This document shows positions 1 through 4,518 of a stretch of DNA of 64,000 nt, in pieces. The DNA lies in contig CM097882.1 of the NCBI GenBank assembly GCA_044892505.1, forward strand, positions 342,798,001 to 342,862,000. Reading direction: 5' to 3'. Position 1 is the stretch's first letter; each line of letters opens with the position of its first letter. Under the pieces are notes generated by a model, which ran no database searches, was not told where the DNA came from, and worked only from the letters and a program-made list of their open reading frames with translations. The translations under genes and the position numbers were made by a program. This DNA is from Schmidtea nova. Taxonomy: Eukaryota.

Positions 1-4
1 TTTC

Positions 5-958
5 ATGGTCAATCTCCAAAATCCAATGTATTTGGACGGGATTTGGGAAGTCGCTCTCTTAGACTTTACATTTGTGTATAATCCATTTCCATTTTACAGT
101 AAATCAGAAATTCGGTACAAAAAGAAAACTATACATACAAAATATAAAAATTTGATTATCAACAATCAATTTTGTGAAGTTGATATATCTAATCCTGCCG
201 ATGATATTGCTCAAATCAGTAGCGATAGACATTCTATTTATTTTACCTGTGATAATTTTCCCTTCACTATAACTTTTGATACTTTGGCAATGGCAAAAAG
301 AATGGGATTAACGAAACAGAGTATTGTAAGTCTTACAGATACATACAAGATACCGTTACCATATTATGGTATAGATGGTCCATTAACGGAAAAAATTAGA
401 ATAAAGATGGAGTACAAGGCTGATTCTGTATTTATACATACATTTACCGATAATTTATACATATCGAAACTGGATGAAATGCAATCATATTTTATTCTAA
501 ATTGTGCAAGTATTTTTAAATCTCTGGAATTGGTAGATGATAGTTACTTCAAATTCAGTTTGAATGCAGATGTTAGCGAAATAACTTTTGACAATAACCT
601 TGTAAAAACATTGGGATTAGCGAAAGCTACATATGCTCAAGACGGAAGCTTCACTGTTGGAATATATAAACCAAAAATAATTAAACTTCATCAGCAAATG
701 TTCATTTACAGTAATATAGTCAATCCTATAATTGTCGGTGATTCATTAGTTCCCATGTTGAAATCTGTATGGATTGAAAAATATGAACAGGATGAGGTTG
801 TTCAAATACAAGTTGAAAATCCAATGTATTTATCTGTTTCAACATCCTGTATAAACAATATAGAAATAAATATCCGAGATGATAGAGGTAATTTAATAAA
901 CTTTCCAAAAAATTCCAAAACTCATTTGACTCTACATTTTCGAAAACATCATGAGTAA
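5..958 (+). CDS. Maverick minor capsid (penton-like) protein, mirror copy, 5' end outside window
   Basis: Matches the C-terminal 317 aa of 3466-4518 except one residue (L vs P); WEVAL and YSNIV...VGD..VPMLK...YL..S...INNIEINIRDDRG motifs typical of Maverick mCP. Confidence 0.8.
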   Translation: MVNLQNPMYLDGIWEVALLDFTFVYNPFPFYSKSEIRYKKKTIHTKYKNLIINNQFCEVDISNPADDIAQISSDRHSIYFTCDNFPFTITFDTLAMAKRMGLTKQSIVSLTDTYKIPLPYYGIDGPLTEKIRIKMEYKADSVFIHTFTDNLYISKLDEMQSYFILNCASIFKSLELVDDSYFKFSLNADVSEITFDNNLVKTLGLAKATYAQDGSFTVGIYKPKIIKLHQQMFIYSNIVNPIIVGDSLVPMLKSVWIEKYEQDEVVQIQVENPMYLSVSTSCINNIEINIRDDRGNLINFPKNSKTHLTLHFRKHHE

Positions 959-1316
959 TCCCGATATAATTTCATTGTACAGTAATAGCCAAACTGGTGG
1001 CGAATTACCGTATTTTATAGGTAAACAGTATGGATCAGGTTGGTTGAAAACTATTGGAAGATTTGCACTTCCACTACTTAAGCGACTGGGTAGTTTTGGA
1101 ATGAAAACTGCTAAAGATGTTATAATGAAAGATCAGAAAATTTTACCTACATTGAAAACGAATGCTATGGAGGCTGTATCCAAGGCGATACCGTCAATTT
1201 CAAATATGTTTTCCAAAAACGAACCGCAACCTGAACCGGTAGGACCAAGACGTAAAAAGATTAGAAAACGTATAAACAAACGAATGAAAGGTCATGGAAC
1301 TATATTTGAAGAATGA
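951..1316 (+). CDS. Small basic Maverick core-like protein (mirror copy)
   Basis: 121 aa between mCP and MCP; QTGG and QYGSG motifs, amphipathic GWLKTIGRFALPLLKRLG, basic C-terminus; identical protein at 3108-3473. Confidence 0.7.
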   Translation: MSNPDIISLYSNSQTGGELPYFIGKQYGSGWLKTIGRFALPLLKRLGSFGMKTAKDVIMKDQKILPTLKTNAMEAVSKAIPSISNMFSKNEPQPEPVGPRRKKIRKRINKRMKGHGTIFEE

Positions 1317-2620
1317 TTTGCGGTAAATCTGAATTATGTCTTTTTGATCGACCATCACCTCAAGCAGTTATTGAATATGGGGTGTTTGAAGATGTTTTTC
1401 CAATGAATTCTATTACAGATAGTAGAAATGATGTTGAATTTTACATTAATGGATCGGCAACCGAATATTTGGATTTGAACGATACTTTATTATCCGTTAC
1501 TGTCAAGGTTCTAGATAAAGATAAAAATAAATTAGTTGATGCGAGTGATGTAGTGCCTAATAATTACCTATTTCATACTCTTTTCAAAGATGCAATTCTT
1601 GGATTTAATAATATAAAAATCGAGGGTGGAAACAATACATATGCACACAAGGCCATAATCGAAACTGTTTTAAATTATACTAGCGATACAAAAGAAACAT
1701 GTCTTACTCCAATGGGATATGGTTCATCTGACGATAGGAAAAAGTGGATCAAGGGATCTAAACTTTTCAACATGTGTTCATCATTACAACTCGATTTTAT
1801 GGATCAACCAAAATACTTACTTCCCGGAGTTAATGTACATATTAGATTGAAGAGATCTGAATCTTCATTATCATTGAAATCTGCAGCTGGGAAACCTATA
1901 ATCCAAATAGTTGATGCAAAATTAATGGTAAGAAGAGTTCGATGTGAATATTCAGTTTTGGCCGGTCATCAAATTGGTTTAAATAGTAAACATGCAATTT
2001 ATCCATTAAAATCCAAAGAAATCGTGTCGTTTGCCATCGGTAAAGGGGCATCGTCATTTTACAAGGAGCAAATATTTGGAGATAGAAGAATGCCTAATTT
2101 CATTCTTGTGGCTTTTCAAACTGAAAATCAATATAATGGATCATATGCTGAATCTGCATCTACATTCAAACATTTCAATGTGACTTCATTATCGTTATCG
2201 AAAAATACCGATTTTCGAGAAACTTATACTCAAGATTTTGAAAATGATAATTTTAGTGCCACATATATGCAAAGTCTTGTCCGAAATCTAGGATATTTGG
2301 ATAAAAACTTGAATTGTGGTATAAGTCTGGATGAATTTAAAAGTAAATATCCATTCTTTACATTTGTGCTCGCTCCCGATTTCGATTTGAATCAAAGCCA
2401 AATCCCTCAAAACGGGAATTTACGACTCGATATAAAGTTTGCAAAACCCATTGATGAACCGGCCAAAACTGAAGATTCACATCGAACTCTTCTTACCATT
2501 AATTTTGCATCAACTATTTGGATTATAGGTTTCCCAGCTGCAGATTTCAATGATAATGAAGATTCAGATCTCTTCAATCTAATATGTACATTAACTCCGG
2601 GAAGTAAGTATTTTGGTTGA
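1313..2620 (+). pseudogene. Maverick major capsid protein, native to about residue 383, then read-through into the inverted arm
   Basis: KSELCLF...VEFYING...YLDLNDTLL N-terminus and FVLAPD...GNLRLDIKFAKP C-terminal motif of Maverick MCP; sequence after ~2460 is antisense MCP. Confidence 0.85.
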
Positions 2621-3111
2621 TCCATAAAATCGAGTTGTAATGATGAACACATGTTGAAAAGTTTAGATCCCTTGATCCACTTTTTCCTATCGTCAGATGA
2701 ACCATATCCCATTGGAGTAAGACATGTTTCTTTTGTATCGCTAGTATAATTTAAAACAGTTTCGATTATGGCCTTGTGTGCATATGTATTGTTTCCACCC
2801 TCGATTTTTATATTATTAAATCCAAGAATTGCATCTTTGAAAAGAGTATGAAATAGGTAATTATTAGGCACTACATCACTCGCATCAACTAATTTATTTT
2901 TATCTTTATCTAGAACCTTGACAGTAACGGATAATAAAGTATCGTTCAAATCCAAATATTCGGTTGCCGATCCATTAATGTAAAATTCAACATCATTTCT
3001 ACTATCTGTAATAGAATTCATTGGAAAAACATCTTCAAACACCCCATATTCAATAACTGCTTGAGGTGATGGTCGATCAAAAAGACATAATTCAGATTTA
3101 CCGCAAATCAT
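2407..3111 (-). pseudogene. Maverick major capsid protein truncated after residue ~218 by the fold-back junction
   Basis: Matches 1313-2620 up to VLAG (one E-Y/E-S substitution), then 16 unrelated residues and a stop. Confidence 0.85.
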
Positions 3112-3473
3112 TCTTCAAATATAGTTCCATGACCTTTCATTCGTTTGTTTATACGTTTTCTAATCTTTTTACGTCTTGGTCCTACCGGTTCAGGTTGCGG
3201 TTCATTTTTGGAAAACATATTTGAAATTGACGGTATCGCCTTGGATACAGCCTCCATAGCATTCGTTTTCAATGTAGGTAAAATTTTCTGATCTTTCATT
3301 ATAACATCTTTAGCAGTTTTCATTCCAAAACTACCCAGTCGCTTAAGTAGTGGAAGTGCAAATCTTCCAATAGTTTTCAACCAACCTGATCCATACTGTT
3401 TACCTATAAAATACGGTAATTCGCCACCAGTTTGGCTATTACTGTACAATGAAATTATATCGGGATTACTCAT
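3108..3473 (-). CDS. Small basic Maverick core-like protein
   Basis: Overlaps the mCP stop and MCP start; Gly-rich QxGG/QxGxG motifs, amphipathic helix, Lys/Arg-rich tail. Confidence 0.7.
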   Translation of the reverse strand: MSNPDIISLYSNSQTGGELPYFIGKQYGSGWLKTIGRFALPLLKRLGSFGMKTAKDVIMKDQKILPTLKTNAMEAVSKAIPSISNMFSKNEPQPEPVGPRRKKIRKRINKRMKGHGTIFEE

Positions 3474-4518
3474 GATGTTTTCGAAAATGTAGAGTCAAAT
3501 GAGTTTTGGAATTTTTTGGAAAGTTTATTAAATTACCTCTATCATCTCGGATATTTATTTCTATATTGTTTATACAGGATGTTGAAACAGATAAATACAT
3601 TGGATTTTCAACTTGTATTTGAACAACCTCATCCTGTTCATATTTTTCAATCCATACAGATTTCAACATGGGAACTAATGAATCACCGACAATTATAGGA
3701 TTGACTATATTACTGTAAATGAACATTTGCTGATGAAGTTTAATTATTTTTGGTTTATATATTCCAACAGTGAAGCTTCCGTCTTGAGCATATGTAGCTT
3801 TCGCTAATCCCAATGTTTTTACAAGGTTATTGTCAAAAGTTATTTCGCTAACATCTGCATTCAAACTGAATTTGAAGTAACTATCATCTACCAATTCCAG
3901 AGATTTAAAAATACTTGCACAATTTAGAATAAAATATGATTGCATTTCATCCAGTTTCGATATGTATAAATTATCGGTAAATGTATGTATAAATACAGAA
4001 TCAGCCTTGTACTCCATCTTTATTCTAATTTTTTCCGTTAATGGACCATCTATACCATAATATGGTAACGGTATCTTGTATGTATCTGTAGGACTTACAA
4101 TACTCTGTTTCGTTAATCCCATTCTTTTTGCCATTGCCAAAGTATCAAAAGTTATAGTGAAGGGAAAATTATCACAGGTAAAATAAATAGAATGTCTATC
4201 GCTACTGATTTGAGCAATATCATCGGCAGGATTAGATATATCAACTTCACAAAATTGATTGTTGATAATCAAATTTTTATATTTTGTATGTATAGTTTTC
4301 TTTTTGTACCGAATTTCTGATTTACTGTAAAATGGAAATGGATTATACACAAATGTAAAGTCTAAGAGAGCGACTTCCCAAATCCCGTCCAAATACATTG
4401 GATTTTGGAGATTGACCATGAAATTACTGGAAGTATTATCTGGATGTATATCTGGACAACTGTTGCTAGGTAGAATCATATAAAAATTCATTTTACTAGG
4501 TTTTTTGATGATATCCAT
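3466..4518 (-). CDS. Maverick minor capsid (penton-like) protein; probable start is the second Met (4491)
   Basis: MNFYMILPSNSCPDIHPDNTSSNF matches the typical Maverick mCP N-terminus (FYxxLPSNS...N..S.F). Confidence 0.82.
   Translation of the reverse strand: MDIIKKPSKMNFYMILPSNSCPDIHPDNTSSNFMVNLQNPMYLDGIWEVALLDFTFVYNPFPFYSKSEIRYKKKTIHTKYKNLIINNQFCEVDISNPADDIAQISSDRHSIYFTCDNFPFTITFDTLAMAKRMGLTKQSIVSPTDTYKIPLPYYGIDGPLTEKIRIKMEYKADSVFIHTFTDNLYISKLDEMQSYFILNCASIFKSLELVDDSYFKFSLNADVSEITFDNNLVKTLGLAKATYAQDGSFTVGIYKPKIIKLHQQMFIYSNIVNPIIVGDSLVPMLKSVWIEKYEQDEVVQIQVENPMYLSVSTSCINNIEINIRDDRGNLINFPKNSKTHLTLHFRKHHE

Follow-up and report, generated by a model that had tools for sequence, protein, structure and literature searches.

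How does a Maverick come to lie folded back on itself inside its own capsid gene, and is the fold a product of the element's replication, of the host chromosome, or of sequencing? The question arises from a window of 64,000 nt of the Schmidtea nova genome (the whole stretch of DNA analysed here). Self-comparison of the window identifies 2458-4423 as the reverse complement of 1-1966, with three substitutions and no indels, and the left arm runs on to position 1; the mirror, its substitutions and the course of the left arm agree with an earlier note. We favour, at a probability of roughly 0.40, an integrated snap-back genome: a helper-dependent Maverick half-genome that keeps one end, the integrase, the ATPase, the minor capsid gene and most of the major capsid gene (MCP), followed by a mirror copy. 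The inverted duplication is composed as follows.

1..1966, unstranded: left arm of the inverted duplication, running off the window edge
1967..2457, plus strand: single-copy loop of 491 nt, normal MCP sequence of the family
2458..4423, unstranded: right arm, continuous with the remainder of the element

The arms are 0.15% apart, differing at 333/4091, 1220/3204 and 1950/2474, the last of these 12 nt from the junction, and none of the 16 homopolymer runs of at least 5 bases in the arm carries an indel between arms. Over the visible 1966 bp, the palindrome is symmetric around the loop, with priming of the intramolecular type. If complete to the terminus, the mirror would span window positions -6038 to 10462, about 16.5 kb rather than the ~20 kb first estimated, with its far (left) terminus predicted at about -6038; 1966 of the ~8000 predicted mirror bases lie in the window. 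A scaffold that simply begins at position 1 is ruled out, as the window is mid-chromosome, deep within a piece that measures 447 Mb or more and continues beyond the window.

The element is a young Maverick, whose frames outside the broken MCP are all open over 8 kb. Its features other than the MCP are these.

2..958, plus strand: minor capsid gene, left copy, its 5' part beyond the window
951..1316, plus strand: basic ORF of 121 aa, left copy, no family match
3108..3473, minus strand: basic ORF of 121 aa, right copy, from the ORF list
3466..4518, minus strand: minor capsid (penton) protein, 350 aa, open; mavirus penton is the top match (E 2e-7)
4488..5534, minus strand: rve integrase with C-terminal chromodomain, PF00665 above cut-off
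5590..6135, minus strand: basic ORF of 181 aa, no confident family
6156..6779, minus strand: A32-like packaging ATPase, 207 aa, PF04665 above cut-off
6873..7340, plus strand: TBP-like ORF, 155 aa, PF00352 (E 5e-14)
7609..9742, plus strand: three ORFs of 170, 146 and 193 aa, function not assigned by Pfam or PHROGs
9870..10462, unstranded: repeat-rich terminal region, putative TIR

The rve integrase, the A32-like ATPase, the MCP and the minor capsid protein (mCP) together support the Maverick identity that had been proposed. Pfam and PHROGs returned no family for the MCP, the mCP or the small ORFs, and PDB sequence searches with MCP and mCP profiles gave nothing significant; the predicted fold of the minor capsid protein (pLDDT 93) identifies it, at the level of a model, as a single jelly-roll protein. 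Within the integrase, 42 nt at 5105-5146 begin with GT, end with AG and contain two stops; this stretch is likely an intron, with the integrase parts on either side in one frame, whereas intact vertebrate Mavericks are described as intronless (PMC8097293, PMC6431247, bioRxiv 2023.08.22.554363). The region 9870-10462 is likely the TIR, and its exact end is placed by inference at 10457-10469. On the minus strand the terminus shows one AGT at 10462 or AG at 10469, with no full repeat, and thus no clear match to the (AG)3 or (AGT)2 motifs of vertebrate Maverick ends (PMC8097293).

As the earlier note had claimed, the module normally beyond the MCP is not seen within the window: the ORF lists of the 64 kb contain no protease frame and no pPolB frame, and self-comparisons reveal no second terminus. 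A Peptidase_C5-like frame, each time below the Pfam cut-off, follows the MCP in three of three related loci. These loci, drawn from 182 candidates in metagenome contigs, are all shorter than 2.1 kb and therefore show the protease only, not pPolB. In viral contigs, none of 12 candidate stretches was confirmed as an MCP relative. The locus is thus like described Mavericks/Polintons (PMC8097293, PMC6431247, bioRxiv 2023.08.22.554363) in its integrase, ATPase, double jelly-roll MCP, penton-like mCP and repeat-rich end, and in the protease after the MCP of its relatives; it differs from them in having no pPolB or protease in the window, a broken MCP and a mirrored central module.

The turn itself lies in the MCP, of which the window carries two incomplete copies.

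1313..2620, plus strand: chimeric MCP ORF of 435 aa; residues up to about 383 are native, the rest is antisense read-through
2407..3111, minus strand: half MCP ORF, 234 aa, native residues 1-218, then antisense read-through

Homolog alignments bear out this position of the fold. The left ORF can be aligned only to residue 376-385 in 117 of the 120 homologs listed, and all 113 homologs of at least 390 aa extend 22-33 residues further past that point; the fold replaces the last ~24 MCP residues, and with them the last core beta-strand is lost. The native part of the 234-aa ORF corresponds to about the first jelly roll. A homolog 82% identical to the window protein (P0001) has a predicted fold (pLDDT 91) that matches the MCPs of iridovirus, PBCV-1, Sputnik and mavirus. 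On this model, the capsid gene at the fold is a double jelly-roll MCP with both window copies broken.

The junction tells how the turn could have been made. Two sites are proposed to have paired.

2444..2462, plus strand: proposed 3' end priming the fold-back; normal copies depart from the window sequence after 2462
1962..1980, plus strand: proposed landing site, complementary over 5 nt exactly and over 19 nt imperfectly

The exact 5-nt microhomology (2458-2462 versus 1962-1966) sits within an imperfect 19-nt inverted repeat (2444-2462 versus 1962-1980); among 200,000 random fold-backs, 1.0% yield an exact microhomology of 5 nt. Among 1443 3'-anchored self-priming ends on 1020-2462, the junction ranks first in stability (-14.1 kcal/mol), and on 2463-9800 equally stable ends number 2 of 6319 (minus strand) and 3 of 6319 (plus strand), all belonging to one other site pair (5373-5385 with 6032-6045). 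In the predicted fold of 1940-2462 the junction closes the outer stem, its four terminal pairs having probabilities of 0.96-1.0. Since the turn lies on the most stable self-priming site tested, a polymerase likely made it; stability and predicted fold thus support the copy-back, a fold-back primed by a polymerase, that had been suggested. A pure graph error would require a repeat that is both long and exact where the sequence turns, not 5 nt; it is ruled out together with blunt ligation by the coincidence of the junction with that site. The signature of the junction is common to viral snap-back genomes, chromosomal fold-backs and amplification chimeras.

Two near-identical copies or alleles might also have come to lie head to head, by nested insertion and deletion or through a merged haplotype. 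Slight arm differences would be expected in that case, and the family is very high in copy, with 18,000-45,000 family contigs placed per run (depth figures of the runs are not read as copy number). The family is, however, 5-10% diverse and about two thirds or more of its placed contigs are less than 99% alike, whereas the arms are almost identical and agree in each of the 13 minority letters listed; moreover, the junction is the best intrastrand priming site. We regard such an arrangement as very improbable. The merged paralogue considered in the earlier note is unlikely, and two diverged paralogues are ruled out by the closeness of the arms in so diverse a family.

A whole-genome-amplification or library fold-back chimera that entered the assembly, and in which polishing at low depth or on different alleles made the arms differ, has to be weighed more carefully. 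Of MDA chimeras, 85% are inversions, which mostly span less than 10 kb and start from 2-21 complementary bases (PMC1855051), with overlaps of 5-8 nt and a distance peak at 250-300 nt (PMC4595205); the junction, with 5 nt exact and 500 nt between the sites, falls within these bounds for short complementary priming and distance, and phi29 would prefer the same most stable site. The junction string has no match in viral contigs, and an exact look-up in a collection of 15 billion found none of six window proteins. The arm substitutions speak against such a chimera. One molecule copied in vitro should give identical arms, whereas three substitutions with no indel imply about 5e-4 errors per base; with an error rate of 1e-5, such an outcome has a probability of 1e-5. 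Single in-vitro copying of one molecule therefore fails to explain the substitutions. The position of the window deep inside its large piece also argues against an artefact, the open frames of the element would point to accurate assembly, and in an MDA-HiFi study the chimeric contigs reaching two assemblies numbered 1 and 0 (PMC11660948). Taken together, an artefact is unlikely.

Public sequencing runs, none of those listed being recorded as RNA, bear on the same alternative. In four runs, none of the 29 junction pieces listed (of 536 placed) crosses the junction, with contigs kept down to depth 4: all stop at 2462, or start at 2458 or inside, and the longest is 45 nt. In one soil run (X1, share 0.28), for the 85-nt junction stretch only, five of five pieces follow normal paths. 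The normal path of the family is the joint of 1967 to 2458 on opposite strands, which each run shows in 6-10 contigs. The want of a bridging contig among those listed fits an artefact; yet at 9092 and 9558 the entire depth in all four runs carries the other letter, so that the runs seem to be without this copy, and the lack of junction contigs therefore says little. The runs give no sign of an amplified subfamily or defective family.

The substitutions also inform the relative age of the fold. Two of the three alter an amino acid, and one yields a residue present in none of the 120 homologs listed, as expected for unselected later mutations; at the Leu/Pro difference in the minor capsid protein, 29 of 40 homologs are gapped. 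Among the listed coding differences from the family, 22 of 38 fall at codon position 3, as one would expect of a lineage with recent activity. Near-private sites, where about 98% or more of run X2 carries the other letter, number five in the 5.9 kb outside the arms and none of the 13 listed within the arm; this count draws on a tool-selected 40 of 459 rows, and none seen against ~1.7 expected is not significant. The between-arm rate (3 in 2 x 1966) is similar to the near-private rate outside the arms, which would weakly fit a fold and an insertion of the same age. Only one arm difference can be polarised, and there it is the left arm that deviates; the other two do not appear in the 40 listed rows. 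The left arm may thus carry all three changes, a pattern equally compatible with a poorer consensus on that side. For the junction stretch, the run listing gave no letter differences, by itself no proof of the family letter at 2474.

In a chromosomal origin, a break or fork stall in the MCP of an already integrated copy would have let host machinery fold the 3' end at the same inverted repeat of the junction, with a second junction left of the window. The DNA would be real and the copy dead, a possible hairpin RNA being all the viral biology left. Such an event accounts for the three substitutions, the single copy and the absence from other runs. One substitution is only 12 nt from the junction, and errors can cluster near template switches. 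The host part of the window has other small palindromes and a tandem duplication. Human inverted duplications likewise combine a single-copy spacer (766-70,466 bp) with 2-8 bp of inverted microhomology (PMC3907307), although even the shortest of the 21 spacers sequenced there exceeds the 491-nt loop. A second junction would also be needed, as the chromosome would otherwise be dicentric or deleted. Furthermore, a fold long after insertion would leave private mutations in both arms, and none of the 13 listed arm sites is private and common to both, a weak point against it. We consider a chromosomal event possible, if doubtful.

The integrated snap-back genome would have formed as follows. Protein-primed synthesis from the surviving terminus would have run to 2462 and left its template; the freed 3' end would have paired with 1962-1980 of its own strand, and its extension as far as the terminus would have yielded a hairpin. 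A new round from the terminus, copying through the loop, would then produce a linear duplex whose ends both carry this terminus. The strand-displacing polymerase would be the element's own, and the integrase, still encoded by the half-genome, would have inserted the palindrome of ~16.5 kb, the three mutations arising since to separate the arms. Its pPolB, protease and intact MCP would have to come from helpers, and the family offers many such copies. The Maverick identity, the fold in the MCP, the loss of the module and the primed fold-back are supported as first proposed, and the size is not. The recomputed mirror length falls within the 13-25 kb of Polintons (bioRxiv 2023.08.22.554363). A likely side effect, judged from the predicted fold, would be hairpin RNA of at least 2 kb, made by read-through transcription and directed against the whole family.

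Hairpin defective genomes occur in adenovirus, and palindromic linear plasmids are a further case. Snap-back defective viral genomes (PMC13506859) share with this locus one genome end, a mirror around a loop and helper dependence (proposed here), and AAV snapback genomes (PMC8235507) are a comparable class; here, in contrast, the genome is integrated in a germline-like chromosome, with a mirror predicted to continue beyond the visible 1966 bp. In Mu killer of maize (PMC3440606), part of an autonomous element is duplicated in inverted orientation so that one terminus occurs twice (here predicted), and a long hairpin RNA results (here predicted from the fold); unlike the Maverick, it is a cut-and-paste plant transposon with demonstrated silencing. 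Chromosomal fold-backs (PMC3907307) and MDA chimeras (PMC1855051, PMC4595205) have the same order of arm, single-copy spacer and mirrored arm with short inverted microhomology, but are not tied to an element terminus, and the arms of MDA chimeras should be identical.

More tentatively, the locus could be a newborn defective-interfering Maverick palindrome of 16.5 kb in a germline, with the same terminus at both ends, its own target-site duplication (TSD, 6 bp in Mavericks) and Mu killer-like silencing of the family; if so, it would still code for integrase, ATPase and penton, and would show how a self-targeting hairpin originates within a high-copy family. It would also preserve a fossil trace of how Mavericks replicate by protein-primed strand displacement. 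Extrachromosomal replication of these elements is a model from sequence analysis (PMC4196379), and no virions had been seen as of PMC8097293. The left flank of ~6 kb bears on this model: a snap-back ending exactly at both termini with a TSD, if true, could come only from a free linear replicating form, a mirror ending elsewhere would mean an ordinary rearranged copy, and the lack of a spanning read an artefact. As a minor observation, a 400-bp palindrome, which is not counted here in favour of an artefact, gives Rfam matches that all lie below cut-off and reflect only its hairpin.

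The stretch from 2458 to about 10462, taken from its right end, is half of a Maverick (Polinton), ordered as follows.

9870-10462: repeat-rich end
next: three unknown ORFs
6873-7340, plus strand: Maverick-borne TBP-like ORF (PF00352, E 5e-14)
next: A32-like ATPase gene, 181-aa ORF
next: rve integrase gene with chromodomain
5105-5146, minus strand: 42-nt GT..AG stretch inside the integrase gene
next: minor capsid gene, 121-aa ORF, start of the major capsid gene (MCP)
1967-2457: loop of 491 nt between the arms

The predicted structure of the minor capsid protein (pLDDT 93) has the mavirus penton as its best match, and a natural homolog, 82% identical to the major capsid protein, is predicted to fold as a double jelly roll. 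All element genes have open frames except the integrase, whose two parts share one frame and are separated by the 42-nt stretch, which holds two stops. Since 3-5 family contigs per run carry a 2-nt deletion inside it, this stretch probably represents a spliceosomal intron; intact Mavericks of vertebrates, by contrast, are reported to be intronless. The terminal region (9870-10457) consists of short tandem units and shows loose internal inverted symmetry, with palindromes of C/G runs at two places, near 10013 and near 10398. Four public sequencing runs of organism A show a very large, diverse family: 18,436-45,235 contigs per run match it, roughly one third each at 99+, 95-99 and 90-95% likeness.

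The earlier note described 1-1966 as the mirror of 2458-4423, and self-comparison bears this out: the reverse complement differs by three substitutions (333/4091, 1220/3204 and 1950/2474) and by no indel, including in the 16 homopolymer runs of at least five bases compared between the arms. No second inverted repeat of comparable size was found by self-comparison in the 64-kb window. The structure is present in the sequence itself, and the element is a non-autonomous Maverick derivative. A scaffold beginning at position 1 is ruled out, because the same piece extends at least 179.6 Mb to the left of the window and at least 268.0 Mb to its right; a contig gap immediately outside is possible, and the window holds six N runs, which are either gaps or withheld stretches.

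The fold was also placed inside MCP, and rightly so, as the left ORF departs from its homologs at residue 376-385 in 117 of 120 listed matches. Full-length homologs (n = 113) continue for 22-33 residues beyond that point, and the last core beta-strand (residues 385-399 in the predicted structure of an MCP homolog) lies within the lost C-terminal part. In the right arm, the MCP ORF has 234 aa, of which residues 1-218 are native. Capsomer assembly by either ORF is unlikely. Contigs that diverge from the window beyond 2462 (18-22 per run) and those linking 1967 to 2458 on opposite strands (6-10 per run) represent the normal, unfolded path of family copies. A protease-like frame, scoring below the Pfam cut-off, directly follows MCP in all three related loci; by analogy with the family gene set (PMC6431247), pPolB and the other terminus would be located further on in complete copies.

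At the junction, 1962-1966 is the exact complement of the final five bases ahead of the turn, both lying inside a 19-nt imperfect inverted repeat; at least five exact complementary bases occurred by chance in 1.0% of 200,000 random fold-backs. As single-stranded DNA, 1940-2462, a fragment whose end we set at the junction, is predicted to form an outer stem closed by precisely the junction pairing. As a control, each 3' end from 1020 to 2462 was scored for its best 3'-anchored duplex at most 1 kb upstream. The junction ranked first of 1443 ends by duplex stability (-14.1 kcal/mol), and thus it likely arose when a 3' end annealed to its own strand and was extended by a polymerase. In 2463-9800, which partly duplicates the arm, equal stability was reached by 2 of 6319 ends on the minus strand and 3 of 6319 on the plus strand, every one at a single other site pair, a predicted spot for further fold-back in the family.

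5373-5385 and 6032-6045: self-priming site pair, equally strong imperfect inverted repeat

Such a signature is also left by phi29 in vitro (PMC1855051, PMC4595205) or by host chromosomal enzymes (PMC3907307); the element's pPolB, a host enzyme and phi29 in the tube are all compatible with it.

Our main reading, to which we give a probability of about 0.4, is an integrated viral snap-back genome. Protein-primed synthesis, begun at the surviving end, would stall within MCP. The released 3' end would anneal to its own strand, 500 nt back, and prime extension up to the terminus. The next replication round would unfold this hairpin, leaving a linear palindrome whose two ends are identical, and integrase would insert it; every step after the priming is inferred. 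The palindrome would retain integrase, ATPase and minor capsid, and helpers would have to supply polymerase, protease and major capsid. Snap-back genomes have a general viral definition (PMC13506859) and have been shown for AAV (PMC8235507); no snap-back or palindromic Maverick was reported in the literature searched, which included parts of Polinton papers and stopped short of most subscription papers and the original Polinton descriptions. Read-through of the convergent arms is predicted to yield a long hairpin RNA, and herein lies the likeness to maize Mu killer, a partial inverted duplication with one terminus in two copies (PMC3440606). A complete mirror would give a computed locus of 16.5 kb, inside the 13-25 kb range reported for Polintons (bioRxiv 2023.08.22.554363).

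A chromosomal fold-back of an already integrated copy is somewhat less probable; it requires a second junction, outside the visible window. A fold before insertion would leave later mutations arm-specific and none shared, and one long after it would leave private mutations common to both arms. Among the 40 differences from the family listed of 459, codon position 3 accounts for 22 of 38 coding ones (arm 9/13, p 0.009; outside the arms 13/25, p 0.04), so most are lineage differences under selection. Within the same 40, there are five sites with about 98% or more of another letter in one run (X2) across the 5.9 kb that lies outside the arms, and none in the arm; the arms differ from each other at 3 of 3932 arm-bases. 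These rates fit a fold of the same age as the insertion, but the count comes from a shortened list, and finding no such site in the arm, where about 1.7 were expected, is not significant.

Less probable still is a fold-back made in library, amplification or assembly. A single round of in-vitro copying would be unlikely to produce three substitutions and no indel (chance 1e-5 at 1e-5 errors per base); the rate required is near 5e-4 per base, and amplification polymerases are far more accurate. The three differences could, however, be alleles split between arms during polishing. Two of the three alter an amino acid, one yielding a residue present in 0 of 120 homologs, which we counted for real DNA, as we did the chromosome-scale assembly and the open element frames. 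On the other side, the junction is crossed by no piece in runs X1, X2, X3 and X5 among the 29 listed of 536 (longest 45 nt), which suggests that it represents no large subfamily; run contigs are weak witnesses, rare variants being dropped. The window copy is probably absent from these runs, since at 9092 and 9558 all depth shows another letter in all four.

The window also contains the following.

10677-10746, minus strand: match below cut-off (E 0.003) to a hammerhead-type ribozyme (RF02275), immediately past an N run and the end of the Maverick; probably the stub of a Penelope element or a retrozyme
11673-13421, minus strand: host ORF of 582 aa, weak Ig-like match only; it resembles the terminal part of a membrane protein with one transmembrane pass and a tail rich in Pro and Ser
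18343-18753, 36541-38005, 40679-41260, 45432-47584, 60924-61355: transposase-, Gypsy-type integrase-, two hAT-type transposase- and histone H2B-like fragments, judged by eye from the ORF list
23741-24118: head-to-tail duplication, about 188 bp, 99% alike
54981-55380: 400-bp palindrome without spacer, with a single mismatch and an (AT)n tract at its end; candidate origins are a foldback element, a Penelope-type inversion or an artefact
63601-63839, 13826-13981, 55480-55653: short palindromes of the foldback (MITE-like) kind, the latter two alike
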